This document shows, one piece after another, positions 1-19,355 of a stretch of DNA of 22,089 bases. The DNA comes from Methanobacteriota archaeon (GTDB lineage: Archaea > Thermoplasmatota > E2 > DHVEG-1). Where the stretch lies: NCBI GenBank assembly GCA_963769885.1, contig CAVYNH010000002.1, positions 1 to 22,089 of the forward strand, in the 5' to 3' direction. Below the pieces are notes generated by a model, which was given only the letters and a program-made list of their open reading frames with translations, was not told where the DNA came from and made no database searches. Position 1 is the stretch's first letter; each line of letters opens with the position of its first letter. A program made the position numbers and the translations under genes.

Positions 1-761
1 CATATAATCCCTTGTTTTATGCCGTTGATTTCTTGGTATATCACCGGTGATTTCTCGGAAAATAGACCAAACCGGGTCTCTATCGCAAGGTCACCATCTG
101 ATGTTACCCTCATGTTATCAACACCATCATATCGAATAAGAATCGTATCTGGGTCTCCACCAGAATAGACAATGAAATCGTATTTCAACGTGTTCTCAAT
201 GAAATGGTACTGTAAATCAATTCCAGGGTAGATACCCTTGTACACAACCTCTTGGTAATTCGGAACATCGGTATACCACTTCTCAGGGTTATTTCCAATG
301 AAATAGTTGTTATTGTTAGGAAGTCGACGCTCACCGGTAACGACTGCACTGGGGTTTGCGCCAACAAACTCCGCGACCGTAGAAATCATCTCCATCTGTT
401 GCGGTTCTCTTACTTGTATTCGTTCCATCGGGTTTTTGTTATCCTTCAAATCGGCACTCTTAGAATCGTTTAATTCTCTGGTGAACACTGAGACGATTTT
501 GTTCTTGCAGAGATAGACGGTTGCCCCGGGGGCATGCGTCTGAAACAGTACTTCTTCCGGGAATTGGCCTTTATTCTCTGTAAAATACATTGAGGCTGCT
601 AGGGCTTGCTCGAGAATTTTTTCTCTTTGCAAGTTTTTGTTCTCGACAACTCCGGCACCATACATTTCTTTAATACCCATGATGCTCGGCATAACACTTG
701 CTCCAAGGAATAAGATTATTATTCCAAACACTAGCCCTTTCATAAATAGATTATTTTTCAT
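1..761 (-). CDS. Secreted protein with the N-terminal domain typical of SBBP beta-propeller surface proteins (DUF7948-like); 3' part runs off the window
   Basis: Not in the ORF track. Manual translation from ATG 761 is open to the window edge: MKNNLFMKGLVFGIIILFLGASVMP (signal peptide)...YFTENKGQFPEEVLF...NNYFIGNNPEKWYTDVPNYQEVVYKGIYPGIDLQY...LKYDFIVYSGGDP...GDLAIETRFG...PVIYQ. These motifs are characteristic of that domain. Confidence 0.8.
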   Translation of the reverse strand, partial: MKNNLFMKGLVFGIIILFLGASVMPSIMGIKEMYGAGVVENKNLQREKILEQALAASMYFTENKGQFPEEVLFQTHAPGATVYLCKNKIVSVFTRELNDSKSADLKDNKNPMERIQVREPQQMEMISTVAEFVGANPSAVVTGERRLPNNNNYFIGNNPEKWYTDVPNYQEVVYKGIYPGIDLQYHFIENTLKYDFIVYSGGDPDTILIRYDGVDNMRVTSDGDLAIETRFGLFSEKSPVIYQEINGIKQGII

Positions 762-965
762 TTTCCTCTTTGCCTCCCCAAATAAAGATTTTACGCTAAT
801 CATCATCCGAGAAAAGTATATGAATATTTCGATACAAATTTTATTGCAACGAATGTTATGAAAATTTAAGACTGGAAAGCCTGCCGAGAACCACCCAGCA
901 TGAGAAAAGGGCGTTCTCTGGAAACCTTAATCTGCCATATACCAGGTATGGATACCCCCGTCATT

Positions 966-2315
966 TTATTCCCAAGACGCGTACCCCGAGGGATTCCCAG
1001 GGACCCATTCCGGGGGAACACGGTACGCTCGATAGATCTGCTGAACCCTGGTGGGGGTCGTGTACTCCCACACGACTTTCGAGGTGTTGGTGACCTCAAT
1101 GACCCGCCCGTTCGTCGCCTCAGTGATTAACGTGTTTCCATTGGGTAACCGCTGGGCAGAACTCATGTAGAAGCTGTACAGCTTATGGTTGTCACCGGTA
1201 CGGGGGATCAACCAGTGCAAGACACGATGGGAGTACTGCCAGACGATGTCGTAGGTCACGGGGTTGAACTCGATCACGCGGGACCACAGCCTGCAGTTCC
1301 GTGGCATCCCGAAATACCCGTATCCCGCCATGCCACCATTATCGAATAGCAGGATGTTGCCTTCCCCAGGAAGCCCTTGGGGAATCATGTGCGCGTGATG
1401 CAAACCGATGAGTTGACCAAGTTTTCGGCCAGCCTCGGTGTTCTTGAAATCAGGGCCGACCCTCCAGACGATATCCCCGGTGTCTCGACTGATGATGGCA
1501 AGAAAATTGGTATTCCGCGTACTGATGATAATGTTCTGGGGGTTGAAGCAGGAGTACGTGACCGGGTCTGTGGAGTACCATTTGTTGGGGCCGAGCAGTG
1601 ACATGGAGTTGGTGTGGAGGAGATCCCCGTCGCCGAGGACGCCGGGATTCACATAGATCCCATGTTTTATCTCCGCAGTAAAGCCGAATTGGTTGAAATG
1701 TTCCGAGGCACGCCACACAAACCCGGTGGGAGTCCCATTCCAGTCAATCTCGTAGATGATATCATCGGCAAACGGCCTTCTGCTGATGCTTGTATTAAAG
1801 ACTTCATGGTGGGCAAGAATCAAGGTTTTTCCTTGAGGGACAAAGTCCTGACCGGGGGCATAGTAGCCGACTGGGTTTCCCTCGCGCTCAAAATCATGAT
1901 GCTGCCGGGCTCGGTTATCCTCCCAGCCGTGGTAACTCCAGACGATGCTCCCGTTCCAGGCGATCTCATTGAGAGACGTAAAATCGCCGATCCCATCAAT
2001 GCCGCATAACCGGTACTCGCTCCCTGCAAGGATGGATCCTCCCGGCAGCATCTTCGCAGGCTGTGAGAAGAACGACGGCCAGCGATGGATCACGGTTCCG
2101 TTCATGTCCACCAGGATGGTCTGCGTGAATCGACTCAGCAACGTATATCCATCGCAACACCCTTGAGAATGGACCGATACGAATCCGGGTGTGCCCGCAT
2201 TTTCCTGAAGAGAAGGCAAAGGGGCTCCAGCATTCCCGTAGGACAAAACGGGGAGGAGCACAATGAGACACAGGACCATCGTGAATCGTCCGCCCTTAAA
2301 TCTCGATGCCGCCAT
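966..2315 (-). CDS. Secreted aryl-sulfate sulfotransferase (ASST, PAPS-independent)
   Basis: 449 aa with a hydrophobic N-terminus. Motifs QHHD, HTNS, STRN, HHAH, LLFDNG, SRVIEF and SSAQRLPNGNTLITE match the ASST His/Asn/Arg catalytic pattern. Confidence 0.88.
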   Translation of the reverse strand: MAASRFKGGRFTMVLCLIVLLPVLSYGNAGAPLPSLQENAGTPGFVSVHSQGCCDGYTLLSRFTQTILVDMNGTVIHRWPSFFSQPAKMLPGGSILAGSEYRLCGIDGIGDFTSLNEIAWNGSIVWSYHGWEDNRARQHHDFEREGNPVGYYAPGQDFVPQGKTLILAHHEVFNTSISRRPFADDIIYEIDWNGTPTGFVWRASEHFNQFGFTAEIKHGIYVNPGVLGDGDLLHTNSMSLLGPNKWYSTDPVTYSCFNPQNIIISTRNTNFLAIISRDTGDIVWRVGPDFKNTEAGRKLGQLIGLHHAHMIPQGLPGEGNILLFDNGGMAGYGYFGMPRNCRLWSRVIEFNPVTYDIVWQYSHRVLHWLIPRTGDNHKLYSFYMSSAQRLPNGNTLITEATNGRVIEVTNTSKVVWEYTTPTRVQQIYRAYRVPPEWVPGNPSGYASWE

Positions 2316-2355
2316 GATATTCCTCTTAGGAAGGATAGGAAAATAATCCTCATTC

Positions 2356-2365
2356 TAATATAAAA
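2356..2365 (-). promoter_or_regulatory. TATA box for the ASST gene
   Basis: TTTTATATTA on the minus strand, ~40 nt upstream of ATG 2315, with A-rich BRE-like sequence upstream. Confidence 0.5.
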
Positions 2366-2485
2366 TATTTCTTACGAACGAAGAAACCTGAGTTTCGTAC
2401 TTAAATAGAGAAAGTGGGAAACTTCGACTGGTCAGCAACATCCAAGAAGAGGCACGGCGATACGTCGAGTGTGAGGTGAATCCGT

Positions 2486-2710
2486 TTGAGCCGCCTGGAC
2501 TCTCTCTATAGCCTTATGCGTCGATTGAAATATCCTGAGTTCATCTGGATGTTTTTCCTCATCATCTATGGAGTATCTGCCCTTGTCGCCGTCGTGTCCG
2601 ACCGACTAGGGGTTCATGGGTCTGCACAGATGCTTTTGGGTCTTGTCGTATTGATTATCATGATGGCCCTGAGCGTGTTTCTCTTGCTCTTGTTTCTCAT
2701 CAAAAGTTGA
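2486..2710 (+). CDS. Small hypothetical membrane protein (2 predicted TM helices)
   Basis: 74 aa. TTG start preceded by SD-like GAGGTGA; two long hydrophobic segments (FIWMFFLIIYGVSALVAVV; MLLGLVVLIIMMALSVFLLLLFLI). Confidence 0.55.
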   Translation: MSRLDSLYSLMRRLKYPEFIWMFFLIIYGVSALVAVVSDRLGVHGSAQMLLGLVVLIIMMALSVFLLLLFLIKS

Positions 2711-2755
2711 AAAAGTGGGGCCAGGAAGGCCGATTTCCATGCGTTTTGTAGCAAA

Positions 2756-2764
2756 TTATAAATA
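2756..2764 (+). promoter_or_regulatory. TATA box upstream of the ACT-like gene
   Basis: TTATAAATA preceded by GCAAA, at the left edge of the C-rich segment. Confidence 0.5.
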
Positions 2765-2775
2765 GGCTAACACCT

Positions 2776-2797
2776 ATATTCCCACAATATTCCCACA
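2776..2797 (+). repeat. Perfect 11-bp tandem repeat ATATTCCCACA x2 (possible operator)
   Basis: Copies at 2776-2786 and 2787-2797, starting 12 nt downstream of the TATA box. Confidence 0.75.
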
Positions 2798-2959
2798 AAC
2801 TCAGGGGGACCATCCCGATGACGACACCACCCACCACCAAACCCGCGAGCGCCACCACCGCGCCTCGTGATCGCCTTCATCCCTAACCCCACCTCCATCC
2901 TGGAAATTTTGAAAAACACCTCCGCGGCCCCAGCGGACGCACGGACCAGGAGTACCACC

Positions 2960-3286
2960 ATGACCCCGGACCCTAAAAAAACAATCCACCTCGACATCGA
3001 GTTCGACGGCAGCCCCCGCAGCCTCGCCCAGATCGCCACCATCCTCGACAAGACCCGCATCAAGATCATCTCCTCCTTCTCCCACCGCAGCCTCCAGCGA
3101 AACAGCACCCGCTGGGGCATCATTGCCGACACCACCCCCTCGCCCTACGGCCTCCAAGAGATCCAAGCCACCCTCGCCCAGCTTCCCGAAATCTACAACG
3201 TCACCATCACCACCGCCACCCAAGGCCGCTTCATCTGCAAGGTCCCCCCCTTCCCGGAAACGACTTCGTTTGCACCACCGTACTAG
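2960..3286 (+). CDS. Stand-alone ACT-like domain protein (108 aa)
   Basis: In frame with track ORF 2867..3286; ATG 2960 has an AGGAG SD. The pattern IHLDIEFDGSPRSLAQIATILDKTRIKIISSFS...LQEIQATLAQLPEIYNVTI fits the beta-alpha-beta-beta-alpha-beta ACT fold. Confidence 0.6.
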   Translation: MTPDPKKTIHLDIEFDGSPRSLAQIATILDKTRIKIISSFSHRSLQRNSTRWGIIADTTPSPYGLQEIQATLAQLPEIYNVTITTATQGRFICKVPPFPETTSFAPPY

Positions 3287-3326
3287 AGTTGGAGAAGATG
3301 CAAGAAAAAGGAGGCACTTATCGGGA

Positions 3327-4346
3327 TTAGGTTAATTCACCCTTCCGCTTCGTAATAGTGTCCAACGCCTCTTTCATCTCTTTCTTATCGAAGGATCGGG
3401 CAGCGCCCTGCTCCTCTTCTTTTTTCGGCGCGGCAAGCCCCAGGTAGACCTCAGGCGTCTTCCACACAAACTCAGGGATAAGCACCGGCATCTCCCTCCC
3501 CGGCACCATCAAGGGATCCAGCTTCCCCCCCATCTCAGCACCGATGAACCGCTCCTGCTTGAACTGCTTACTCAACAGCTTGGTATGGAGAAAAACCGGC
3601 CGCGGATAATACACATCCCGGCGGAACAACGTGTTAAAGAACCCCTGCGCCTGCTGCACCGGGAACTGGTACCACCGCCCCGGGTACGCCAAATGCACCG
3701 GCCCCTGGTACGAATGGCTATCGACCTCCCCGTAAAAAAATCGGTACTGGTCGACCTTAAAGAACCGCGGCTCCGGCCCCTGAATCGGCCACAGCTTCGA
3801 CAGGAACTTGAAATCTTTCGTCGCCACGTTAAAGCCCGTCACATTCACCACCGACTTCGACACGATCAAATCATGGAACCGCGGGGTTCCGAACCGCGGC
3901 AGCAACCACATATCCGCGTCCCACTTCGGCGCCACATGCGAGAACCGGGTCTTTGACATCCCCCAGTTCGTGTAATACGAAAAAATATGCACCGATGCGT
4001 CCCCCGGGAACTGGGGGTACATGATGCGCTCGAACTTCCGCTTCGGGGTCCGATCCGTCACCTTCGCAAACGAAAACGGATACCGCAACAGCCGCAGCTT
4101 CGGCGACCGAAAACTCTTCACAATCTCCTCGGTCCGATCCCCCTCCTTCTCCGTCATCGTCACCAGAATCTCATCGCACAACGGCAGCATGCTCTCCAGA
4201 CACGGCCCAATCCACCGCTCCTCCCCAAAGCAACGGATGACCACAGACAACCCAGGTTTCCTATGCTTGTACCACTCTGGGTCTATGTTAAAATCCGAAT
4301 ACCCCTCCGTATTCTCCAAAATCATCTCACTAGGATGAAGCGGCAT
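3327..4346 (-). CDS. GT-A/GT2 glycosyltransferase, CgtA (beta-1,4-GalNAc transferase)-like; paralog A
   Basis: GLSVVIRCFGEERWIGPCLES...DEILV...DRTEEI GT2 N-terminus, RYPF...SYYTNW and KWDADM DxD motif. AGGAG SD before ATG 4346. Confidence 0.8.
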   Translation of the reverse strand: MPLHPSEMILENTEGYSDFNIDPEWYKHRKPGLSVVIRCFGEERWIGPCLESMLPLCDEILVTMTEKEGDRTEEIVKSFRSPKLRLLRYPFSFAKVTDRTPKRKFERIMYPQFPGDASVHIFSYYTNWGMSKTRFSHVAPKWDADMWLLPRFGTPRFHDLIVSKSVVNVTGFNVATKDFKFLSKLWPIQGPEPRFFKVDQYRFFYGEVDSHSYQGPVHLAYPGRWYQFPVQQAQGFFNTLFRRDVYYPRPVFLHTKLLSKQFKQERFIGAEMGGKLDPLMVPGREMPVLIPEFVWKTPEVYLGLAAPKKEEEQGAARSFDKKEMKEALDTITKRKGELT

Positions 4347-4426
4347 CACGATACTCCTAGAAATCTCTCACAACGCCCGGACCGACCGACGCACATTGCT
4401 CTGAGCCGATCCCATCACCCTGACGT

Positions 4427-4434
4427 TATTTAAA
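4427..4434 (-). promoter_or_regulatory. TATA box for GT paralog A in the divergent intergenic region
   Basis: TTTAAATA on the minus strand, ~80 nt upstream of ATG 4346. Confidence 0.4.
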
Positions 4435-4528
4435 CATTCTCCACACGTCCCCCCTCGACGCAAACAACGCACCATGCATCGAAGAGAACAAAAGTTCTTA
4501 GAATCCGAATGATTACCAGTGCACTGCA

Positions 4529-5482
4529 ATGCCGCTGAACCGCTGCCCCATGATCCTGGAGAACACCGAAGGATACTCCGACTACAACATCCGCGACGAC
4601 TGGTACACCCACCGCACCCCCGGCCTCTCCATCGTCCTGCGCTGCTACGGCGAAGAACGCTGGATCGGCCCCTGCCTCCAAAGCGTCCTCCCCCTCTTCG
4701 ACGAAATCCTCATCACCCTCACCGACAAAGAAGGCGACCGCACCGAAGCCATCGCCAACAGCTTCCACTCCCCCAAAATCCGCATCCTCAAATACCCCTT
4801 CAAAATCAACACCATCACCACCAAAACCTACGGCACCAAACGACAACACATCTTCCACAAAAAATACCCGGGCGCCCCCTCCGTCCACAGCTTCTCCTAC
4901 TACACCAACTGGGGCATGGCCCAAACCCACCACACCCACGTCAGCCCAAAATGGGACGCCGACATGCTCCTCCTCCCCCACTACGCCACCACCGACTTCA
5001 AACACCTCATCCTCACCAAATCCATGGTCTACGTCCTCGGCTACAACGTCGCCACCCCCGACCTCCGCTACCTCTCCAAACTCTGGCCCCTCATCGGCCC
5101 CGAACAACGCTTCTTCAAAGTCGACAAATACCGCTACCACATCGGCGAAGTCGACGAACTCACCTACCAAGGCATCGTCAAGCTCGGCTACCCCGCCCGC
5201 TGGCAACAATTCCCCATCCAACAAACCCAATGCCTCTTCAACGCCCTCCTCCACCGCGACATCTACTACCCCACCCCCATCTTCATCCACACCAAACTCC
5301 TCAAAAACACCCACGACGACGGCCGCTTCGTCGGCAAACGCCTCTACGACACCCAATACCCCGGCTGGTGGCAAACCCTCCGCGACCAAACCCACCCCGG
5401 CAACCCCACCCCCACCCCCATCCCACCCTTCTTCCACAACCCCCCAGAAACCTACCTCAACCATACCCCCACCACACCATAA
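4529..5482 (+). CDS. GT-A/GT2 glycosyltransferase, CgtA-like; paralog B
   Basis: 317 aa with the same motifs as paralog A (GLSIVLRCYGEERWIGPCL, KYPF, SYYTNW, KWDADM). 38 of the first 52 residues are identical to paralog A. Confidence 0.8.
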   Translation: MPLNRCPMILENTEGYSDYNIRDDWYTHRTPGLSIVLRCYGEERWIGPCLQSVLPLFDEILITLTDKEGDRTEAIANSFHSPKIRILKYPFKINTITTKTYGTKRQHIFHKKYPGAPSVHSFSYYTNWGMAQTHHTHVSPKWDADMLLLPHYATTDFKHLILTKSMVYVLGYNVATPDLRYLSKLWPLIGPEQRFFKVDKYRYHIGEVDELTYQGIVKLGYPARWQQFPIQQTQCLFNALLHRDIYYPTPIFIHTKLLKNTHDDGRFVGKRLYDTQYPGWWQTLRDQTHPGNPTPTPIPPFFHNPPETYLNHTPTTP

Positions 5483-5527
5483 TCTTTTCATACCACCCAA
5501 CGAATAAACCCCAACCCGGGGGAGACC

Positions 5528-7321
5528 ATGCCACGCACCCTCATCCAAAAAATCTTCGCCACCCACACAAAAGACCCCGCCACCGTCGACGCCATCATCG
5601 AACTCGCCATCGACCTCAGAACCGCCCGCGACTTCGGCGGCGCCAACGTCGTCAAACACCTCCAAGACCACCACCTCACCCCCCAAGACCCCACCAAAAC
5701 CCTCTTCACCTTCGACTGCAACCCCGGCGGCTGCGACCAAAAATACGCCATCAACCAACACCTCTGCCGCCAATACGCCCGCACCCACCACATCCCCATC
5801 ACCGACATCAACCAAGGCATCGGCACCCACCTCGTCATCGACCACCACCTCATCACACCGGGCGACACCTTCGTCTCCACCGACAGCCACGCCAACATCC
5901 TCGGCGCCATCGGCGCCTTCGGCCAAGGCATGGGCGACATCGACATCGCCTACGCTTTCGCCCACGGCACCACCTGGTTCAAAGTCCCCCCCACCACACG
6001 CCTCACCCTCAAAGGAACACCCAGCCCCCACGCCACCGCCAAAGACGTCACCCTCAAACTCGCCAAAGACCTCGGCGCCAACGGCCTCCTCGGCTCCGCC
6101 GCCGAACTGACCGGCCCCTACACCGACCGCCTCACCCTCGACCAACGCATCACCATCGCCTCCATGGGCACCGAAATGGGCGCCATCGCCCTCCTCCTCA
6201 CCCCCAACAAACCCATCATCGACTACTACCATCACTCCCACCACCACACCATCCCCCCACTCGCCCCAGACCCAGACGCGACCTATAACCAAATCGTCAC
6301 TATCGATATCAACGGCCTGACCCCCCAACTCTCCCGTCCCGGCCACCCCGAAGACGTCACCAGCGTCCACGACTGCGAAGGCACCCCAATCGACTCCGGC
6401 TTCATCGGCTCCTGCACCAACGGCCGACTCGAAGACCTCAGAGCCGCCGCCGCCATCCTCAAGGGACGGCACATCGCACCCGGCCGCATCCTCAAAATCG
6501 TCCCCGCCACCGACGACATCTGGAACACCTGCCTCCAGGAAGGCCTCCTTAAAATCTTCAAGAACGCCGGCGCCCTCATCGGCTCCGCCGGCTGCGCCGG
6601 CTGCGCCGCCGGACAGATCGGCCAGACCGGCGCCGGCGAAGTCACGGTCTCCACCGGCAACCGCAACTTCACCGGCAAACAAGGCAAAGGAGACATCTAC
6701 CTCGCCTCCCCCCAGACCGCCGCCGCCAGCCTCATCGCCGGCTATATCACCACCGCCGATGCCATCCCCCGGTCCCCCGCGCCACTCCCGCAAAGCACCC
6801 CACCAGCCATCCAGAAGAAACCAGAATCAGCCAAGCATCCATCCCTACAACTGCAGGGGAAAGCCTGGGTCATCAATCAGGATAACATCGACACCGACGC
6901 CATCTACCACAACCGCCACCTCACCGTCACCAACATCGCTGAAATGGGCCAGTTCACCTTCGCCAGCTTCAAAGGCTACGAACAGTTCTCCAAAAACGCG
7001 GCCCCCGGCGACATCGTCGTCACCGGTAAGAATTTCGGCTGCGGCAGCAGCCGCCAACAGGCAGTCGACTGTTTCAAGTCCCTAGGCATCAGCCTCATCA
7101 TCGCCGACTCCTTCGGCGCCATCTACGAACGCAACGCCATCAACAGTGCCTTCCCCATCTTCACCCTCCGCAACGCCACCGCCTCCATCGCCACCGGCGA
7201 CCACCTCACCGTCGACCTCACCACCGGCACCATCATAAACACAACCACAGGAACTCGGCTGCAGGCCAAACCTTTTTCCCAGGTACAACGCTCCATCTAC
7301 GAACGAGGAGGACTCCTGTAA
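5528..7321 (+). CDS. Aconitase-family (LeuC/HacA + LeuD/HacB) large-small subunit fusion with an atypical active site
   Basis: 597 aa: STDSH, NMG-like SMGTEMGA, GSCTNGR, GCAGC (three Fe-S Cys) and STGNRNF. A Pro-rich linker leads to a swivel domain with DNIDTD and GKNFGCGSSR. Confidence 0.88.
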   Translation: MPRTLIQKIFATHTKDPATVDAIIELAIDLRTARDFGGANVVKHLQDHHLTPQDPTKTLFTFDCNPGGCDQKYAINQHLCRQYARTHHIPITDINQGIGTHLVIDHHLITPGDTFVSTDSHANILGAIGAFGQGMGDIDIAYAFAHGTTWFKVPPTTRLTLKGTPSPHATAKDVTLKLAKDLGANGLLGSAAELTGPYTDRLTLDQRITIASMGTEMGAIALLLTPNKPIIDYYHHSHHHTIPPLAPDPDATYNQIVTIDINGLTPQLSRPGHPEDVTSVHDCEGTPIDSGFIGSCTNGRLEDLRAAAAILKGRHIAPGRILKIVPATDDIWNTCLQEGLLKIFKNAGALIGSAGCAGCAAGQIGQTGAGEVTVSTGNRNFTGKQGKGDIYLASPQTAAASLIAGYITTADAIPRSPAPLPQSTPPAIQKKPESAKHPSLQLQGKAWVINQDNIDTDAIYHNRHLTVTNIAEMGQFTFASFKGYEQFSKNAAPGDIVVTGKNFGCGSSRQQAVDCFKSLGISLIIADSFGAIYERNAINSAFPIFTLRNATASIATGDHLTVDLTTGTIINTTTGTRLQAKPFSQVQRSIYERGGLL

Positions 7322-7335
7322 GGAGGTATACGTTT

Positions 7336-8604
7336 ATGGGTAAGACATTCGCTGAAAAAATCCTCGCCCACTACGGGAAAAAAGACGATGTGGTCCCAGG
7401 AGAGATCGTGACCGTCCACCCGGACCATCTTCTCATGCACGACAACGCCGCACCAATCATCAAGAAGATCACCGCCGATCTTGACTCCTACGGTATCTGC
7501 GCACCAAACCTCCCTATTATCGTCCTCGACCATGTCATCCCTGCAGTCGATGAGAAGACTGCGACTAATCATCAGTTGATTCGTGGGTTCGTCAACAAAT
7601 ACAACCTCCCCTTTTTCTACGATGTCGGCGAAGGCGTGTGCCATCAGATCGTCGTCGAAAAAGGACTCGCCCTCCCCGGGACGCTCCTGCTGGGAAGCGA
7701 TAGCCATACCTGCAGCTATGGAGCCGTCGGTGCGTTTTCTACCGGCATCGATCGGACCGAGGCCGCCGCCCTCTTGCTCACGGGTGAGACCTGGCTGAAG
7801 GTCCCGAAGAGCATCCGCGTCAACCTTAACGGGATGATGCAGCCTATGGTCTGTGCCAAGGATGTCGTCCTCTGGATTATTGGGCAGCTCGGCGCGAGTG
7901 GTGCCGACTACTGCTCGGTCGAATACCATGGGGATATCGCCCAGTTCTCCGTTGATGATCGGTTCGCCATCGCCAACATGGGCGTCGAGATGGGGGCGAA
8001 GAACGCCGTGTTCCCCGTAGATAAGATTACCACGAAATATCTCCGCGGCATTGGCATAGAGGCCTCGAAATATACCCCGGTTTCTCCTGACCACGACGCC
8101 GGGTATGCGTCCACATTGGATGTTCCTCTCGAAGAGATCCCGCCGATGGTCGCGGTCCCTCATCATGTCGACACGGTCAAACCGGTCACTGAGGTCGCCG
8201 GCATCGCCATCCAGCAGTGCTTGTTGGGGACTTGCACGAACGGGCGGCTGTCTGATCTTCGGGTTGCTGCGCGGGTGCTGAAGGGCAAGACTGTGCATAA
8301 GGGCGTCCGTCTCTTGGTGCTGCCGGCATCGCGGCAGGTCTATCTGGATGCGGTTAAGGAGGGCTACATTGATGTCCTCGTCAAGGCTGGTGGGCTGGTG
8401 CTGCCGCCCGGGTGTGGTCCCTGTCTGGGGGCGCATCAGGGGGTGTTGGCGCCGGGTGAACGGTGCCTGAGTACGTCGAATCGGAATTTTAAGGGTCGGA
8501 TGGGCTGCAAGGACGCGGAAATCTATCTGGCGGGTCCGGCGACGGTCGCCGCCTCGGCTATCCATGGGGTCATCACGGACCCGCGTGCGGAGGTGAAGCC
8601 ATGA
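7336..8604 (+). CDS. leuC: 3-isopropylmalate dehydratase/homoaconitase-type large subunit (LeuC/HacA family; substrate not determinable)
   Basis: 422 aa with canonical MHD, LDH, GVCHQ, DSHT, CTNGR, CGPCLG and STSNRNFKGRMG. AGGAGGT SD at 7321. Confidence 0.9.
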   Translation: MGKTFAEKILAHYGKKDDVVPGEIVTVHPDHLLMHDNAAPIIKKITADLDSYGICAPNLPIIVLDHVIPAVDEKTATNHQLIRGFVNKYNLPFFYDVGEGVCHQIVVEKGLALPGTLLLGSDSHTCSYGAVGAFSTGIDRTEAAALLLTGETWLKVPKSIRVNLNGMMQPMVCAKDVVLWIIGQLGASGADYCSVEYHGDIAQFSVDDRFAIANMGVEMGAKNAVFPVDKITTKYLRGIGIEASKYTPVSPDHDAGYASTLDVPLEEIPPMVAVPHHVDTVKPVTEVAGIAIQQCLLGTCTNGRLSDLRVAARVLKGKTVHKGVRLLVLPASRQVYLDAVKEGYIDVLVKAGGLVLPPGCGPCLGAHQGVLAPGERCLSTSNRNFKGRMGCKDAEIYLAGPATVAASAIHGVITDPRAEVKP

Positions 8605-9119
8605 AGGTTTGGCGGTATGGCGATGATGTGAACACGGACATGTTGTTTCCTGGGAAGTATACCTATACCTGTAGTACGCCTGATGAGATTAAGCCGCATC
8701 TCCTAGAGGATCTTGATCCGTTGTTCGCGAAGGGTGTGCAGCGGGGGGATCTCATCGTGGCGGGGCGGAATTTCGGCTGCGGCAGCAGCCGCGAGCAGCC
8801 GGTGCTCGGGCTGGTGGCGGTCGGGGTGAGCGCGGTGGTCGCGGAGAGTTTCGCGCGGATTTTCTATCGTGCGGCGATCAACCAGGGGTTGCTGCTGATA
8901 GAGTGTCCGGCGGCGGTCAAGGCGTATCGGACTGGTGCTGCGATTGTGGTGGATGTGCAGTCGGGAATGGTCCATGTGGGGTCTGCGTCGTTTCCGTTCC
9001 CGCGGCTTCCGGCAGAGATTCTGGCGATCCGTGAGGCGGGTGGGCTGTTGCCGTACACGCGGGCGCGGTTGAAGAAGGGGAAGGTGTGTGTTGGGGAAAA
9101 AGAGGGAAATAAAGGGTGA
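8601..9119 (+). CDS. leuD: 3-isopropylmalate dehydratase/homoaconitase-type small subunit (LeuD/HacB family)
   Basis: 172 aa: GDDVNTD, GRNFGCGSSRE, SFARIFYR.AIN.G and AGGLL. ATGA overlap with the large-subunit stop. Confidence 0.9.
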   Translation: MKVWRYGDDVNTDMLFPGKYTYTCSTPDEIKPHLLEDLDPLFAKGVQRGDLIVAGRNFGCGSSREQPVLGLVAVGVSAVVAESFARIFYRAAINQGLLLIECPAAVKAYRTGAAIVVDVQSGMVHVGSASFPFPRLPAEILAIREAGGLLPYTRARLKKGKVCVGEKEGNKG

Positions 9120-9132
9120 GCTGGGGGATTGT

Positions 9133-9309
9133 TTATTCTTGGTCGTAGAGGGCTAGGGTGTCGAAGAATTCGGGTTTGAAGTAGTAGCCGGCGCTGGTTT
9201 TTTCGATGAGGCCGGTGCGCAGGCAGCGGTCGAAGAGTTCGTCGTAGTGAGGGGTGTCCTCGTGGGTCGGGGTTTTTTTACGGGGTGGGGTTTTTTTCTT
9301 GGTGGGCAT
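9133..9309 (-). CDS. Small basic hypothetical protein (58 aa), possible winged-helix-like fragment
   Basis: Below the track length cutoff. MPTKKKTPPRKKTPTHEDTPHYDELFDRCLRTGLIEKTSAGYYFKPEFFDTLALYDQE*. GAGGA SD, TTTAAATA TATA at 9362-9369 and codon usage matching the neighbouring minus-strand gene. Confidence 0.7.
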   Translation of the reverse strand: MPTKKKTPPRKKTPTHEDTPHYDELFDRCLRTGLIEKTSAGYYFKPEFFDTLALYDQE

Positions 9310-9361
9310 GGTGGTGACGTTCCTCGCTATGTTTTAGCATGCGAGGTTTTGGCAGTGATGG

Positions 9362-9369
9362 TATTTAAA
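9362..9369 (-). promoter_or_regulatory. TATA box for the 58-aa ORF
   Basis: TTTAAATA on the minus strand, ~53 nt upstream of ATG 9309. Confidence 0.5.
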
Positions 9370-9424
9370 CGTAGGCGGGGAAAACGTCATCCTGGCAGAA
9401 CGGGGCTGGTGGACAGACGTGATG

Positions 9425-10402
9425 TTAGGGGGCGTCGGTGACGAGGAGTTCTTTGACCGGGGTGCCGTCGCTCCAGAGGCCCATGTACCGCTGCTGGGTG
9501 GTGTTGCCGAGGGCATAGTCGTGGTTGGTGCCGTAGAAGGCGTAGTCGGTGAGGGCGTCGAAGAGCTTCCAGGTGGAGTAGTAGTCCATGGCGTTGACCT
9601 GGGTGGAGTTCTCTGGGCAGACGGGGGCGAGGTGGTCGGCGATGAGGGCGGGGGCGCCGTAGCGGTCGGTACGCTGGATGACGTAGTCCTTGTTCTCCAG
9701 GGGGATCTGGTCGGCGGTGGTGAAGATGAGCTTGGCGGAGGCGTTGCCGGCGATGTGGTCGTCTGCGCCGACGACGAGCAACAGGAGTGTCTGGGCTGGG
9801 ATGTCATGGTAGTCGGTGAGCATGACGTCGGTGCGGACGTAGGGCTGCACGGGCATGACCGCCTTCGGCACCGGGAGTCCGACGGAGGCTGCTTTCGCGG
9901 CCATCTCGGCGGTGATGCCGCCGCCGAGGGAGTGACCGACGATCGCGAACTTGTTGGTGTCCGGGTGGACGTGGCCGCTGGTCTGCAGGATGCGGAGGGC
10001 GTGGTGGACGGCGCGGATCGCATGCACGGTGGAGTAACGGAGGCCGATGATCATGCCGAGCTGGTAGCGGGGGTAGATGACGATGTTGCCGCGGCGGACG
10101 AGGTGTGTGATCCAGGCCTGGTAGTAGTGGGGGGTGACGGCGGAGTAGCCGTGGTTGAAGACGATGACGGGAGCCTGTACGGGGGCGGGGTCGGCGGGTT
10201 CAAAGAGCCAGAACGACCATGCGCCGATGCCGTACTGATGCTCGGTGACTGCGGCGTGCGAGTAGTTGGACGAGCCGGGCCCGTCCGTGGGCTGGCCGGG
10301 CGGGGTCGGCGTAAGCGGCTGTGCCATGGCCAGTGGCGACAGGGTGCTGGGGACGAGGAAAAGCATGACTGACAGGGCCAAGGCCGTGAGACGGTAGTGC
10401 AT
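9425..10402 (-). CDS. Secreted alpha/beta hydrolase (chlorophyllase/cutinase-like esterase)
   Basis: Signal peptide MHYRLTALALSVMLFLVPSTLSPLAMA, VIVFNHGY oxyanion motif, GHSLGG nucleophile, GADD acid and ADH His. ATG 10402 is preferred over the track's upstream TTG. Confidence 0.85.
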   Translation of the reverse strand: MHYRLTALALSVMLFLVPSTLSPLAMAQPLTPTPPGQPTDGPGSSNYSHAAVTEHQYGIGAWSFWLFEPADPAPVQAPVIVFNHGYSAVTPHYYQAWITHLVRRGNIVIYPRYQLGMIIGLRYSTVHAIRAVHHALRILQTSGHVHPDTNKFAIVGHSLGGGITAEMAAKAASVGLPVPKAVMPVQPYVRTDVMLTDYHDIPAQTLLLLVVGADDHIAGNASAKLIFTTADQIPLENKDYVIQRTDRYGAPALIADHLAPVCPENSTQVNAMDYYSTWKLFDALTDYAFYGTNHDYALGNTTQQRYMGLWSDGTPVKELLVTDAP

Positions 10403-10455
10403 AACGTAGCCTCTACTCAAAGAATGAATCCGGTTTGGTTAATAATGTTTTGTGC

Positions 10456-10539
10456 AAGGTAGGCAGATGGGGGCGAACATAGGAGGTGGTGAGGAGAGAT
10501 GGGAAAAATTTAGACCATGTACCCCCATCTAGCAACCTT
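10456..10539 (-). ncRNA. Candidate 84-nt hairpin RNA or structured leader
   Basis: Arms 10456-10473 and 10522-10539 are inverted repeats (15/18 Watson-Crick, plus G-U wobbles only in the minus orientation). A TTTATATA box at 10562-10569 predicts a start at about 10539. Confidence 0.4.
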
Positions 10540-10561
10540 ACGAGGATAGTATACATTTTAG

Positions 10562-10569
10562 TATATAAA
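10562..10569 (-). promoter_or_regulatory. TATA box preceding the candidate hairpin RNA
   Basis: TTTATATA on the minus strand within an AT-rich patch. Confidence 0.5.
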
Positions 10570-10674
10570 TATTATTATGGTTATTTAAAAAAGGGGTTGC
10601 GAAAACGGGGGGTAGCGGAACCAGGCAGCCTTCGCGACAGACCCTCCGTCGACCGTAACAAAAGAACACTGTTT

Positions 10675-12202
10675 TCACGGCATGGCCCGCAGCAGCAGCA
10701 TCGTCCCCACGATTTTCTTCTCACCGTTCACCCACGGTAACAGGGTTTGGGAGAACCGTCGCGACTTGCCGTCTGCACCCGCAAGCTCGACGCGCGCCGT
10801 CCGCGGCGCGCAAGTTGACAGCACCAGCAGCTCCACCGCAGCCAGCTGTGCCGCGTACTCAGCGCCAAGGAATCCGTACTCGCGGCGGTCCAGCAGCTGG
10901 TCCATCGGCAGGTTCGCCCACTTGGCCATCGCCGCGTTCACCACCACGAGTCCGCGCATTTCATCCTTGACGGCGACCAAGTCAGGCAGTGCATCCAGCA
11001 GCAGCCGCAGCAAACTTTGCGAACGTTCCAGCTCCTGCTCCGCCTGCCACCAAATCGTAATATCCCGCGAGATCCCCATCGTTCCGATCACCTCGCCATC
11101 CACCGAGTACCCGTGGGATCTTCGTCACCATCACCCACCGCTCACCGAACGAGTCTACGACTTTCTCTACCTTGTTGACGATTGGCACCCCTGACAGGAG
11201 CACCTGTTGGTCGTCCTCCTGCATCTGTGTCGCCACTTCAGATGGCAAGAAATCCGCGTCCGTCTTGCCGACCATCTGATCCGGCCGGACGCGCGCACGG
11301 TCCGCCTTCGCCGTGTTCACCAGGATGAATCGATGCTGGGCATCCTTGAAGTACACCGAATCCGGGATGTTGTCCAGCAATGTGTGGAACAGCTCATGCT
11401 CACGGGCCCGGGCCCGCTCCGCCTCGTTGCGCGCCGTGATATCCCGGATGATCAACACGAAATTATCCACCTCATTGTCCTTCTTCACCAGGAAGAACGA
11501 GCTGATCTCCACCTCCAGCACCTGCCGCTTCGTCGTCTGAATCTCCGTCGTATAGCACGCGGCCTGCTTCTCCGAATGCAGCTGCTCAAACTCACTGACC
11601 ACCACCGGCAACGACCGAGCCGTCAACAGCTCCATATTGAACAGGTTCTTCGACAGCAGATCCTGCTTCGCGATGTCCAGCAGCTCACACACCCGCGTGT
11701 TCACATCCACGATGTCCCCACGCGCATCCAAGACGATGATGCCATCAGTCGCATACTCAAACAGGCCCCGATACTTCTTCTCGCTCTCCTTCAGCCGCTG
11801 CTCCGCGGTCCGTCGCACCTGGATATCCCAGAGCAGCACGAACATCACGATCCGCGCCTCCATCCGGAACACCGACAGGCTCACCTCCACCGGCCGGCGC
11901 GACCCATCCTTACAGACGCACTCCGTCTCCACGTTCAACCCGCCGCGGGCAGCCAGCTCATCCCGAATCCCCATCCAATCCGTCTCCGGCGGCAGCACAT
12001 CCTGCAGCGACAACCGCGGCAGCTCCCCCCACTCATACCCCAAGAACTCGGACGACCGATGGTTCGCCTCAAGGATCCGCCCGGACAAATCAGCAAGGAA
12101 CGCTGACGCATTCACCCGCTCAAATAACGTCTTGTACCGGTCATGCGCCACCGACGACCGCGGCACATCCTCCGGAGAAAAACTACCCACTGCCTCGGGC
12201 AT
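10675..12202 (-). pseudogene. Multi-PAS (about 4 PAS/PAC) protein with no output domain, split by a +1 frameshift (pseudogene or assembly error)
   Basis: Track ORFs 10982..12208 and 10675..11103 join if one C is removed from the CCC at 11110-11112, giving the PAC motif WVMVTKIPRYSVDGEVIGTMGISRDIT. Repeats seen: YKTLFE..A, YRGLFEYATDGI, LLDNIPDSVYFKD, LLDALPDLVAVKD. Confidence 0.75.
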
Positions 12203-12250
12203 CACCACTCACGCATCCCAACCAACTGGTGCAATAAATCTGCCAGCGGT

Positions 12251-13282
12251 TTATAAACCTGCGGACTCGACCGCCACCCGCCAGACGTCCCCCTGATTCA
12301 GCAGCTCCAGCCGCCGCGGCATGAACTGCTGCAGCACCCAGATGTTCGTCTTCATATGACTGCTGCACTCCCGGACCAGACAGGCCGACGTCTCACGACA
12401 GGCGACCATGTACGGCAGCAGCTGATCCACCGCGTGCGGATCTAACGTCGCCCCCGCTTTGATGTCGGAGATCAACCGTCGCATCGCCGTCTTGCCTACC
12501 TGCTCCGCTGGGAGCTGCCGCTCGCCGAGGACGCCGGCCCCTAAGACCGTCTCCTCGGTGGAAGACCACACCGTAATCCCCACGCCCTGGGACGGTGACG
12601 ACGCCTGCTCCGTCTTCAAGCTCGCTCGGAGATTAGCGGCCGTTGCTTCCTTGATTGCCGCGTGCTTCATCCGCGTCGTGATATGTTCGGGGAGCCCTGA
12701 GCTGTGGATGATGCCCTCAATAACCGAGAATGTCTGCGGGGTATCAACGAGGAATGGCTGCAGCTGGCTCTCAGGCGAGACTGTTAACTCGGCGCGACCG
12801 CCGCCTTTGGGGTAGTAACCGCGTTGCAGGAGGCGCACCTCCGCTCTCACACCCATGCGGCGGGCTAACGGTAGGAACACATGTGCAAAATAGTCCCAGG
12901 ATGGCGCCCAGAGCACGTCTGTGCCGCCAGTCAGCGAAATCGTGAGTGGCCCGGTCGTTCGCAGCCCTCCCAGGAGGCATGCCTGCAGGATCAGGGTGAT
13001 GTTCCCCGCAGTGCCGATGTCAAAGGTATAAGTGCCTGGCCGGACAAGGCCAGGGGAGAATCTAATGGTTCTGGAGCCGATGGACAGCCCGGTGACCTCC
13101 GCGTTGCAGATGGCCTGCAGGCAGGAGATTGCGGTGTAATGCTGTGGGCGTAGGCCGGGGATCGGCCGGTTCGCCCGGATGTTGTTGACCTCGATGGGCG
13201 TCTGGGTGTACACAGAGTACGCGATGGCGGTGCGTAGGATCTGTCCGCCGCCTTCACCGAAGGAGCCATCAATTGTCAGCAT
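12251..13282 (-). CDS. rtcA: RNA 3'-terminal phosphate cyclase
   Basis: True start ATG 13282 (343 aa): IDGSFGEGGGQILRTA, NIRANRP.PGLRPQH, GGTDV, RGYYPKGGG and catalytic LDPHAVDQLL. Confidence 0.95.
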   Translation of the reverse strand: MLTIDGSFGEGGGQILRTAIAYSVYTQTPIEVNNIRANRPIPGLRPQHYTAISCLQAICNAEVTGLSIGSRTIRFSPGLVRPGTYTFDIGTAGNITLILQACLLGGLRTTGPLTISLTGGTDVLWAPSWDYFAHVFLPLARRMGVRAEVRLLQRGYYPKGGGRAELTVSPESQLQPFLVDTPQTFSVIEGIIHSSGLPEHITTRMKHAAIKEATAANLRASLKTEQASSPSQGVGITVWSSTEETVLGAGVLGERQLPAEQVGKTAMRRLISDIKAGATLDPHAVDQLLPYMVACRETSACLVRECSSHMKTNIWVLQQFMPRRLELLNQGDVWRVAVESAGL

Positions 13283-13778
13283 TCGGGCACCGTAAGGGGA
13301 GCAGTTCGTTAAGAAGGATGAGAGCTTCGGTGCAGGCACTGTCTTTGTTCTGCAGCCTGTCACCATGGAACAGGAATCGGCGGACGACGATGGTCTGGGG
13401 GGTGGCGACGGCGACGTAGACGAGGCCGACGGGTTTAGTCGGGGTGCCGCCGGTCGGACCGGCGATGCCGGTGGTGGCGATGCCGTAGTCGACCTTGGCG
13501 CGGGTGCGGATGCCGGTGGCCATGGCTCTGGCGGTTTCTTCGCTGACGGCGCCGTGTTCTTGGATGGTGTGTGTGGGGACGCCGAGGAGTTCGTGTTTTG
13601 CGGTGTTGCTGTAGGTGATGACTCCGCGGTCGAAGTAGTCTGAGCTTCCGGAGATGTTGGTGAGGGTGCTGGCGAGGAGGCCGCCGGTGCAGGATTCGGC
13701 GGTTGCGACTGTGGCGTGGAGTGCTCGGAGTCGTTCAGAGGTTTTATTAAGAAGTTGTTCATCTACCACTTGCGTCAC
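13269..13778 (-). CDS. cinA: CinA/PncC family nicotinamide-mononucleotide deamidase (C-terminal CinA domain only)
   Basis: 169 aa: TAESCTGG, SGSSDYF, YSN.AK, GAVS, TGIAGPTGG and KPVGLV. Overlaps the rtcA start by 14 nt. Confidence 0.92.
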   Translation of the reverse strand: MTQVVDEQLLNKTSERLRALHATVATAESCTGGLLASTLTNISGSSDYFDRGVITYSNTAKHELLGVPTHTIQEHGAVSEETARAMATGIRTRAKVDYGIATTGIAGPTGGTPTKPVGLVYVAVATPQTIVVRRFLFHGDRLQNKDSACTEALILLNELLPLRCPNADN

Positions 13779-13802
13779 CAGCAGGTGGAATCCGTTATTT
13801 GT

Positions 13803-13810
13803 GATATAAA
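13803..13810. promoter_or_regulatory. TATA element between divergent cinA and tRNA-Glu (possibly serving both)
   Basis: GATATAAA (TTTATATC on minus, with GAAACC upstream), ~25 nt before the cinA start and ~50 nt before the tRNA. Confidence 0.5.
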
Positions 13811-13859
13811 GGGTTTCACTCTTTCATCCTTTGTTGTGAGGGTCTGGTGCGCATGGTTT

Positions 13860-13934
13860 GCTCCTGTAGTGTAGTCCGGCCAATCATTCCAGCCTTTCGA
13901 GCTGGTGACTCGGGTTCGAATCCCGACAGGAGCA
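13860..13934 (+). tRNA. tRNA-Glu (anticodon TTC), no intron, CCA not encoded
   Basis: Acceptor stem GCTCCTG/CAGGAGC+A, anticodon arm CCAGC-CTTTCGA-GCTGG and T arm TCGGG-TTCGAAT-CCCGA. Confidence 0.97.
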
Positions 13935-14028
13935 TGCTATTAATTAACACGGTTAGTTTTAAGAAGAAAATGACTATGATTTCAATATCTAAAAGTTCTC
14001 ATCCCTCTTCCCCAGCAATAACTTTTTT

Positions 14029-14919
14029 TCAAAGCTGTTCTTTGGTTGATTGGTAACCAAGTCGACCACGGGTTAGGATGAGAATCAATATTGCTGGTAC
14101 CCCAAAGCCTATCAGGCTTGCCAGGTTCAGTGTGGTCTCGTTAACAGCAAGAAAGAGTGGTATCCAAACAAGTTGTGGGGTATCGATACTGGCATGCATC
14201 AAATTGGAGATGAAAACGCTTCCTCTGGTGTGGTTGAAGACCCAAGTAAAAATGATTGCAAACGCCACAACAATCAGAAAAAAAATTGAGAAGTTTATGA
14301 GGGAGGTAGTCAAGCTGGTGCCTGGTCCTCCTCCATGATTAGGTGTTATGAAGTACAGTAAATGCCAAAAGGCCCACAGGACTCCTAGAAGAAGGGTGCC
14401 CCACAGCGGCCCATAGCGTGGTTGCATACGAGGCAGTGCGAATCCACGCCACCCGATTTCCTCAGGCAGCGCAACTCCAAAAAAGACTACAAAAAAGTAT
14501 GAAGGATAACTAACCAATAAAACAGGTGTTAGACCCTTAAAACTCGCCAACAGGCCTGGCTGAATAATGACCCCAATCAGGATCAGCGTTGGAATGCCTA
14601 GCAGGATGAACATATACCACTGCCAGCCAGCTCTCCGCGGTTTCAGGCGGTCCCGTAAGCGTCGAAGACCCGATTTTCCTTCAGTAATACCAGTCATTAT
14701 AATAGCAGCAAAGGTCGGCCCTACAAAGGGCTTTATGATGTATAGGATTGAGTAATCTCCTGGCAATATACCCCAAACCGAGAGCACATAGGGAAGCGTA
14801 ACAATCCAGGAAAATGCGTATGCCATGAAAAAGAAGAAGAATAGAGGATATCTTTGCATCAACTGTTTTGCGCTGTTTGAACCGGAAACTGATTTACTTG
14901 ATATCTCTGAAGTTTCCAT
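14029..14919 (-). CDS. CPBP/Abi family (CAAX prenyl protease 2-like) intramembrane metalloprotease
   Basis: 296 aa, multi-TM, with EEIGWRG, WAFWH and HASID motifs. A TTTTAAGTAT TATA-like element lies 22-31 nt upstream. Confidence 0.9.
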   Translation of the reverse strand: METSEISSKSVSGSNSAKQLMQRYPLFFFFFMAYAFSWIVTLPYVLSVWGILPGDYSILYIIKPFVGPTFAAIIMTGITEGKSGLRRLRDRLKPRRAGWQWYMFILLGIPTLILIGVIIQPGLLASFKGLTPVLLVSYPSYFFVVFFGVALPEEIGWRGFALPRMQPRYGPLWGTLLLGVLWAFWHLLYFITPNHGGGPGTSLTTSLINFSIFFLIVVAFAIIFTWVFNHTRGSVFISNLMHASIDTPQLVWIPLFLAVNETTLNLASLIGFGVPAILILILTRGRLGYQSTKEQL

Positions 14920-15002
14920 TAAAAAAATAATTGCATCCGTATACTTAAAACTACCTTATCAAAAAATAGTCAAAATCGGGAGATTTATACCCGTGGGTGC
15001 CA

Positions 15003-15018
15003 AATCCCGACAGGAGCA
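15003..15018 (+). repeat. Duplicated tRNA-Glu 3' end (att-like site)
   Basis: Exact 16-nt match to 13919-13934. Confidence 0.85.
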
Positions 15019-15185
15019 CTTGCAAAGGATAAGGCGCATAGAGATAATAATAGAATCGACACGATTCATAACGAAATGAGGATCAAGCGGGTGCACCTGT
15101 TCAAGAGTAAATCCAATTCTAGAAAAAATGATTCAAAATCAATGTAAGAACATAAAAAGATGGATTCAAATGAGCTACGTTTCTC

Positions 15186-18920: not shown

Positions 18921-19355
18921 TGGCTCATCGCCTTCTTGGGTAGTCTTTTTGAGCGCGACAGGCTACCGGTCATTTGAGGCTCGTAGCTGTATCCAATATA
19001 TCAAGATTCCGTTCAGGCAAACGCGCCCCTGGTGGAAAACGAAGCATAAACGCAAGCAACCGAAAAAAGGGCCAATTTGATTGAAAGCTCAATAGAGGAT
19101 AGCACTTGAAACCAGGAACCCGCACAGCAGCATTCAGCCTCGAGTCCTGGTGTTCGGAACCCCACAAAACCAGACATCCATGTAAAAAGAGAGGGCACGG
19201 GATTGCGTCACTCGAACAGATTTGAAAACCAATATTTAATACGCTTCTTAAAAATTTTACGCCTTTTTTGTCAAAATGACCAAAAAACCCGACGAAACTC
19301 CTAAATAAACGCGAGGTCTGAATATCATTCATTGATACAGAGAGGGAGAAAACAG

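Follow-up and report, generated by a model that had tools for sequence, protein, structure and literature searches.

The 22,089 nucleotides (nt) of archaeal DNA examined here, referred to below as the window, make up the whole of contig C2 in the genome of the source archaeon (G000; 2.09 Mb in 7 contigs), an uncultured member of the Thermoplasmatota whose nearest named relatives are uncultured Thermoplasmatota as well. Within positions 2770-13790 the plus strand alternates between C/A-rich and G/T-rich composition, and this skew is a genome-wide pattern of about 190 polarity domains in 2.09 Mb. The window has very probably been shaped by a lineage-specific and very strong strand-asymmetric mutation pressure, through which the free sites of one strand are driven to C, with A second, and those of the other strand to G and secondarily to T. 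Along the chromosome the C-rich role passes from one strand to the other in some 190 two-armed domains anchored at regions that contain transcription-unit starts. Switches from C to G lie about midway between successive switches from G to C, often at gene 3' ends and sometimes inside genes, and genes mostly have their sense strand on the C-rich strand. The feature is real, strong, heritable, confined to a few lineages and partly tied to gene layout. The first-pass annotation could assign it to no known mechanism, and none fits fully.

Strand polarity in the window and along the chromosome

The four 60-nt base counts with which the first-pass annotation had illustrated the skew are exact: 36 C and 1 G at 5401-5460, 30 G and 2 C at 9061-9120, 29 C and 10 G at 11881-11940, and 28 G and 6 C at 13561-13620. 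GC skew in 500-nt steps ranges from -0.60 to +0.42 in the window, with excursions of up to about 10 standard deviations (sd), the binomial sd of such a value being about 0.06. Between 2.75 and 7.5 kb GC skew on the plus strand is about -0.2 to -0.6, with its lowest value (-0.597) at 5001-5500. The sign changes within the LeuC-like gene at about 7.8 kb, after which the skew stays at +0.24 to +0.42 over 8.25-10.5 kb. It then lies between -0.11 and -0.33 from 10.5 to 12.5 kb, crosses zero again at about 12.6 kb inside the rtcA open reading frame (ORF), reaches +0.29 at 13.25-13.75 kb (13251-13750) and returns to about -0.2 to -0.4 across most of 19.25-20.75 kb. AT skew mirrors GC skew (r = -0.79 on the window contig, equivalent to a positive GC/TA correlation).

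Third codon positions carry the pattern most clearly. Plus-strand GC skew at these positions (GC3 skew) lies between -0.98 and -0.62 in the fused aconitase-like gene, passes through -0.48, -0.27, -0.01 and +0.39 along LeuC, and is +0.34/+0.73 in LeuD, +0.67 to +0.40 in the minus-strand hydrolase gene and -0.29 to -0.62 in the minus-strand PAS gene. Values of -0.80 to -0.98 occur throughout 4529-6700 in the first C/A-rich domain, and the codons read in 4529-6000 nearly all end in C, or in A if the synonymous choice is confined to purines. The polarity of this domain continues across the divergent spacer at 4350-4528 (GC skew -0.36) into orf340, where plus-strand GC3 skew is about -0.5; the convergent spacer at 9120-9424 has a GC skew of +0.45. 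A conserved aconitase-family stretch occurs twice in the window, at 7007-7065 and 8745-8803, with 76% identity; part of it uses codons ending in C at the first site and in G at the second.

For the genome as a whole we used 1650 gene calls from a composition-distance (Kullback-Leibler) caller, which reproduced all Pfam-supported genes, and scored orientation classes per 100-codon segment. The sd of 1-kb GC skew is 0.24 genome-wide, and GC and AT skew correlate at about -0.8. Sense-strand GC skew has an sd of 0.39 at codon position 3 compared with 0.15 at positions 1 and 2, which shift in the same direction. Sense-C segments account for 68% of the total, neutral segments for 13% and sense-G segments for 19% (mean sense GC3 skew -0.22). 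Fourfold sites in the sense-C class hold C at.83, A at.08, G at.04 and T at.04, with 94% C in NNY and 78% A in NNR codons; those in the sense-G class hold G at.78, T at.13, C at.05 and A at.04, with 84% T in NNY and 91% G in NNR codons. The two classes are thus reverse complements in composition. Intergenic polarity matches that of flanking third positions (r = 0.6-0.8) at about half the amplitude, including in divergent spacers that lie inside domains. Because the classes are mirror images and intergenic DNA is skewed as well, the cause acts on the DNA strand and not on codons. The earlier reading of the skew as a local property of the DNA strand therefore holds, being supported by the mirrored fourfold composition, by the sharing with intergenic DNA and by switches within intact genes.

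The average preference of the sense strand for C- and A-ending codons could suggest translational or mRNA-level codon selection, for example for codons matching G34 and U34 anticodons. Such selection is hardly credible as the source of the pattern, since 19% of segments show a mirror preference of equal strength for G- and T-ending codons, intergenic DNA is skewed, and the preference changes within genes. Ribosomal-protein genes are found in both classes: in one cluster on contig 4 the skew is -0.8 in L3, -0.6 in L4, -0.56 in S8 and -0.5/-0.8 in L32e, and 0/+0.17 in S5, +0.39 in L30 and +0.35 in S2. Their presence on both sides excludes codon selection, which the mirror classes and intergenic skew likewise contradict, and it makes a pure transcription model awkward. 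In the middle of a ribosomal-protein cluster a G-to-C switch lies inside a gene (G000 C4:279438-279992, +0.10 to -0.53), with no intergenic gap.

Islands with a third-position GC content (GC3) of 0.25-0.48 are nearly free of skew within DNA of GC3 0.7-0.9 (G000 C4:264547-271430, C1:13976-18554 and, in part, 13800-19300 of the window). Their composition is that of low-GC relatives, and they are probably recently arrived DNA that has yet to be reworked.

Domain shape, gene layout and conservation

Switches were defined on neutral-site skew with thresholds of +-0.35 and read on the plus strand, with down denoting G-to-C and up denoting C-to-G; domain borders are derived from the skew itself. Genome-wide there are 191 down and 189 up switches. 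Successive downs are spaced at a median of 9.3 kb (10th-90th percentile 4.9-16.6 kb), and the up-crossing falls at relative position 0.50 +- 0.18 between them. Downs have a median width of 950 nt and ups one of 1200 nt, with arms of about 5 kb. A sawtooth of sharp drops and gradual rises had been proposed from the window, yet it is weak genome-wide, and it is the drops that are wider in the window itself (1200, 1150 and 950 nt, compared with 750 and 700 nt for the rises); at the RNA polymerase operon the shape is reversed. Jumps greater than 1.0 comprise 44 drops versus 20 rises; on a finer scale drops outnumber rises by 126 to 89 at a threshold of 0.7, and there are 7 drops versus 11 rises at 0.9. 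Genome-wide, no keto-score change of at least 1.15 across 70 neutral sites per side was found, nor any flip within about 200 nt. In long domains the plateaus extend as far as 5-8 kb from the boundary. Averaged over the sharpest drops, the profile is two-armed and its amplitude is greatest beside the switch; many arms peak 1-3 kb away from the boundary. A wave between two states, its arms (about 5 kb) joined by switches of about 1 kb, describes the pattern better than a sawtooth does. The gaps bounding the domains had been called AT-rich, which is true only mildly (45-56% AT, genome mean 46%).

The skew had also been described as independent of gene orientation. It is not: a regression on orientation alone captures 31% of the neutral-site variance in skew (slope -0.29). 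Such a link would be expected if passage of RNA polymerase made the non-template strand C/A-rich, sense-G stretches being those where antisense, read-through or divergent-promoter transcription is dominant. The location of the switches agrees with this explanation: 85% of down switches have a transcription-unit start (45% for random intervals) and 83% of up switches a gene 3' end (66% for random intervals), while a unit start accompanies 31% of ups compared with 50% of random intervals. Down switches fall within a single gene in 6% of cases versus 24% at random; in all, 24 up and 12 down switches lie within single genes. Switches of about 1 kb followed by long plateaus would suit a machine with defined start and stop sites, and the regression terms for positions beyond the unit and upstream of the promoter have the predicted signs. 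In the window the sense-G genes could be under read-through, from orf139 into orf340, from the hydrolase gene into leuD/leuC and from the 10.5-kb spacer into the PAS gene.

Position within transcription units does not, however, fully explain the skew, since adding distances to transcription-unit starts (inside, beyond and upstream) raises R2 only to 0.34, or by about 3% of the variance. The residual after removal of orientation has an sd of 0.35 and a negative autocorrelation at 4-8 kb, where the autocorrelation of orientation itself is not negative. Polarity does not appear to follow transcription through the unit, given the 19% of sense-G segments, which include LeuD, PAS, S5, L30 and S2; for S5, L30 and S2, antisense transcription would have to exceed sense transcription within a ribosomal operon. 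Sense-G 3' ends are not stratified by downstream neighbour, being equally frequent beside convergent and tandem genes, nor by gap size. One strong polarity is held on both sides by 27 of the 192 divergent spacers analysed (14%), and skew is weaker in the thermosome and RNA polymerase genes than in the aconitase-like genes of the window. Loss of C from the non-template strand is not seen either: the sense strand is C-rich on average, a sign opposite to that of the non-template-strand mutation (C to T) documented in E. coli by studies cited in PMC12999951. On this evidence we regard transcription as an unlikely source of the wave.

Comparison with a second genome of the same genus, the independently assembled sister species G001, bears on whether the domains are inherited. 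Of this genome, 236 kb aligns to G000 at about 76% identity. At aligned third positions the skews of the two genomes correlate with r = 0.84 and a slope of 0.59 and agree in sign at 95%, and the orthologous leuCD locus of G001 shows the same wave at lower amplitude. The domains being shared with an independently assembled genome, misassembly is ruled out and their positions are stable. Net differences between G000 and G001 at skewed third positions are largest for C/G (C in G000, G in G001; 2368 versus 483), followed by C/T (1749 versus 562), C/A (1312 versus 609) and A/G (1207 versus 460).

Alternating single-strand blocks could look alike at first sight if frequent inversions had broken up a strong replichore skew into a patchwork, or if assembly or binning had produced an artefact. 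Either has next to no probability here. Switches lie in intact, Pfam-supported genes (LeuC and RtcA), and recent inversions cannot yield gradients inside genes; moreover, gene and skew move together in an inversion, so that no sense-G gene can result. There is no replichore-scale skew at the replication origin described below, and the same domains stand at orthologous sites in the second species. Inversions and artefact are both contradicted by the in-gene switches together with the conservation in G001.

Among 18 other family genomes sampled, the keto/amino wave is shown by G014 (GC 0.43, keto-skew sd 0.159; loci L123 and L132) and G015 (GC 0.41, sd 0.116; loci L088, L126 and L127), which represent two other genera and have a GC/AT skew correlation of about -0.7 at these loci. 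G016 gives a hint of it. Most other family genomes, with GC of 0.29-0.37, show purine loading instead. When further loci from relatives were scored, 4 of 111 exceeded a keto sd of 0.10 and none came near the 0.206 of this genome. The best match among metagenome contigs is 83% identical at the protein level.

Replication origin and candidate mechanisms

We tentatively favour, as possible rather than probable, a mechanism in which DNA synthesis would proceed outward from numerous promoter-proximal sites devoid of origin recognition boxes (ORB), initiation at the switches being something that we infer. Processive synthesis of the fork type would start at these sites, which could be initiation zones or places of restart primed by R-loops or recombination, and would travel outward in both directions, the leading strand becoming C/A-rich. 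Neighbouring forks would meet about midway and leave C-to-G switches there, and genes co-oriented with the forks would give the sense-strand bias. The midway position of the up switches is what would be expected because forks from adjacent sites would meet at that point. If the leading strand is the C-rich one, 68% of coding segments are co-directional with the forks and 19% are head-on. Such a sign has been seen elsewhere: yeasts have an A/C-rich leading strand (PMC3459929), and in Haloferax the cumulative GC skew of third positions and non-coding DNA has a local maximum at the mapped origin Ori3 (PMC12999951).

All 20 family genomes contain two Orc1/Cdc6 genes. In G000 there is one canonical archaeal replication origin (oriC), at C6:261740-261930, in which two inverted ORB boxes surround an AT-rich stretch of about 45 nt. 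The boxes, at C6:261745 and 261903, have the cores TTCGAGTGGAAAC and TTCCAGTGGAAAT, each with a G-run, and the origin lies directly upstream of an orc1/cdc6 gene (C6:260359-261630, minus strand). A NucS gene adjoins this orc1/cdc6 gene at C6:259613-259930. The origin sits on a down switch and behaves like the others of its kind; the skew falls from +0.7 to about -0.2 there, the arms extend only 3-4 kb, and replichore-scale skew is absent on either side. A genome scan for the ORB core TTCCAGTGGAAA with at most one mismatch gave 17 hits at 16 sites, two of the hits being those at oriC; the others are genic or off the down switches, except for one intergenic palindromic near-match in a down switch at C7:507.9 kb. 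Given the absence of replichore skew and the scarcity of the ORB core at switches, the wave does not stem from canonical replication at oriC, and any start sites at the switches would nearly all have to work independently of ORB.

Several observations weigh against synthesis from many start sites. Other than at oriC and the C7 near-match, the switches carry no ORB core within one mismatch. Comparison of k-mers (k = 6-8) between the spacers at sharp drops and other spacers gave no motif that survives multiple testing, the foreground spacers being longer, and the repair and replication genes checked in 20 family genomes do not track the trait. Genomes with and without it alike contain EndoV, two copies of Orc1/Cdc6 and NucS; RNase HI occurs in 3 of the 20 genomes and family Y polymerase in none. 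The RNA polymerase operon has a skew near 0 at its 5' end that is strongest 7 kb downstream, after which comes a 1.5-kb flip. The location of oriC on a down switch lends weak support, as the promoter of its own cdc6 gene lies there and the chance of the coincidence is about 0.2. Transcription would just as well produce the sense-strand bias and the association of switches with promoters and gene 3' ends. Archaea are known to have one to four origins, a number far exceeded by some 190 initiation sites, and the replication skews of yeast are slight, even tiny, compared with the amplitudes of +-0.8 found here. Replication skews in bacteria are usually slight too (PMC8256042), far below these amplitudes. 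It is possible, though less likely than not, that hundreds of promoter-near starts, independent of Orc and ORB and about 10 kb apart, serve to copy or re-copy the chromosome in the source archaeon and its sister species as well as in at least two more genera of the family.

Promoter-proximal breaks or nicks followed by 5'-to-3' resection offer a different route, in which single-stranded 3' tails would lose amino bases (A and C to G and T), leaving the plus strand G/T-rich to the left of the site and C/A-rich to its right. Ordinary deamination of single strands would give the observed sign, the two-armed average profile at the sharpest drops has its largest amplitude next to the switch as resection would predict, and the C/G excess between G000 and G001 could come from insertion of C opposite abasic sites of a damaged strand. 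However, decaying exposure should give short arms or broad switches rather than plateaus of 5-8 kb with switches of about 1 kb; many arms peak off the boundary, and the k-mer comparison of sharp-drop spacers detected no site motif. We judge resection to be quite improbable; a substantial share of the probability, though a smaller one than transcription has, goes to a mechanism of a kind not yet conceived.

Comparable systems and features of the window

In vertebrate mitochondrial DNA one strand loses A and C at fourfold sites to near saturation, as happens here, and this heavy/light asymmetry is attributed to the time spent single-stranded. However, mitochondrial DNA has one polarity per genome and one replication mode, in contrast to the hundreds of alternating domains described above. 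Human skew amplitudes are a few percent, compared with up to about 0.9 at neutral sites in this genome. Human skew N-domains (PMC3320577, PMC2764438) come nearest to the present ones in shape: their borders are abrupt jumps located in open or promoter-rich DNA, the sign changes across the domain, and genes tend to be co-oriented with the polarity near the borders; they also carry gradients of replication fork polarity. They differ in size (about 1 Mb, compared with about 10 kb here), in the sign of the jump, which is opposite, in profile, which here is closer to a square wave with 1-kb switches than to a linear ramp, and in their host, which here is a 2-Mb archaeon with one recognisable ORB-type origin. 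The replication skews of yeast and Haloferax volcanii (PMC3459929; PMC12999951) match most closely in axis (A+C versus G+T) and in sign, both of which are shared: an A/C-rich leading strand places a G-to-C switch at the origin, and the canonical oriC lies on such a switch. Those skews are tied to mapped origins, unlike the roughly 190 switches of this chromosome.

In intensity within genes the nearest counterpart is GRINS (PMC8256042), whose coding sequence likewise shows strong GC and TA skews that are correlated along the keto/amino axis, with both signs on one strand and with recoded proteins. In skew alone the window would qualify, its absolute GC skew reaching 0.6 and correlating with TA skew where GRINS call for correlated mean absolute GC and TA skews above 0.15. 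GRINS are also defined by duplication, as regions of more than 500 bp that are more than 80% identical to another region of the same gene cluster (PMC8256042). In the present genome, by contrast, skewed DNA occurs in single copy, covers the entire chromosome and extends into intergenic sequence. No repeat of at least 40 nt beyond composition-level matches was found in the window, and a search of 2770-13790 against the whole genome returned only itself and two matches shorter than 60 nt. Our literature search found no description of kilobase-scale skew domains in archaea, in which GC skews are limited or weak according to a 2026 survey (PMC12999951).

The strand-specific process overrides other mutational input to the point that 83% of fourfold sites hold one base and protein composition is shifted too. 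Provided that the polarity map marks the start and end points of some DNA transaction, that process is mapped at kilobase resolution in an uncultured organism. Should synthesis from many starts prove true, the map would be a fossil record of fork direction at that resolution and would imply a eukaryote-like, or a recombination- or R-loop-driven, replication programme in a prokaryote that retains a canonical oriC. The finding also bears on replication in archaea whose origins are dispensable. The skew also makes it unreliable to infer expression level or horizontal transfer from codon usage.

Features of the window are listed in Table 1. Long shadow ORFs accompany the skew because it strips stop codons from the wrong frames; they are located at 4430-6793 (minus, 787 amino acids), 4519-6288 (plus, 589 amino acids), 7297-8565 (minus, 422 amino acids) and 9419-10372 (plus, 317 amino acids). 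None has a Pfam match or a protein-like composition. Three simple gene callers were misled by shadow ORFs, and the two longest in the window present that hazard to gene callers in general.

Table 1. Genes, polarity domains and switches in the 22,089-nt window
Feature	Positions	Strand	Basis
DUF7948 gene	3-806	-	Pfam
Arylsulfotransferase gene	966-2315	-	Pfam
G-to-C (down) switch, left edge of first C/A-rich domain; includes 551-nt intergenic 2316-2866	1700-2900		Neutral-site segmentation, intergenic composition
Plus-strand C/A-rich domain: orf139 (+), orf340 (-, sense G-rich), orf317 (+), fused aconitase-like gene (+)	2770-7650		Skew, gene calls
Fused aconitase-family gene (large + small subunit, 597 amino acids)	5528-7321	+	Pfam
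LeuC-like gene	7336-8604	+	Pfam
C-to-G (up) switch within intact LeuC-like gene	7650-8400		Neutral-site segmentation, GC3 skew
Plus-strand G/T-rich domain: LeuC 3' end, LeuD (sense G-rich), convergent spacer, hydrolase (sense C-rich)	8400-10420		Skew, Pfam
LeuD-like gene	8601-9119	+	Pfam
Alpha/beta hydrolase gene	9425-10420	-	Pfam
G-to-C switch over 561-nt intergenic 10421-10981 (skew about 0, 45% AT)	10300-11450		Segmentation
PAS sensor gene	10982-12208	-	Pfam
Plus-strand C/A-rich domain: PAS gene (-, sense G-rich, +0.44) and 3' part of rtcA	10982-12500		Skew
RtcA (RNA 3'-phosphate cyclase) ORF	12251-13762	-	Pfam
C-to-G switch within rtcA ORF	12500-13200		Segmentation
Short plus-strand G/T-rich arm, ending at intergenic 13763-14028	13200-13800		+0.29 skew, G28/C6
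Low-skew, lower-GC3 stretch: CAAX protease (GC3 0.46), P-type ATPase (GC3 0.64)	13800-19300		Skew, GC3
CAAX protease gene	14029-14919	-	Pfam
P-type ATPase gene	15186-18920	-	Pfam
G-to-C switch at C25 peptidase gene start	18500-19450		Segmentation
C25 peptidase gene	19332-21263	+	Pfam
Third C/A-rich arm = C25 peptidase gene, sense C-rich (GC3 skew -0.48 to -0.70)	19332-21263	+	Skew, GC3
GT4 glycosyltransferase gene	21421-	+	Pfam

The intergenic stretch under the second down switch lies between the 5' end of the hydrolase gene and the 3' end of the PAS gene. Without a Pfam match, orf340 (3327-4349, minus) has a protein-like composition and its skew is greatest at codon position 3; its sense strand is G-rich from the first codon despite facing a divergent promoter spacer. 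At 5528-9119 the fused aconitase-family gene adjoins the split LeuC-like and LeuD-like genes, an order that is found again in G001 (C22:37991-40866). About 168 residues precede the Pfam RTC domain in the RtcA ORF, and another frame contains a 169-amino-acid ORF of protein-like composition at 13269-13778 (minus). Probably rtcA begins near 13.26 kb and is preceded by a small, separate gene.

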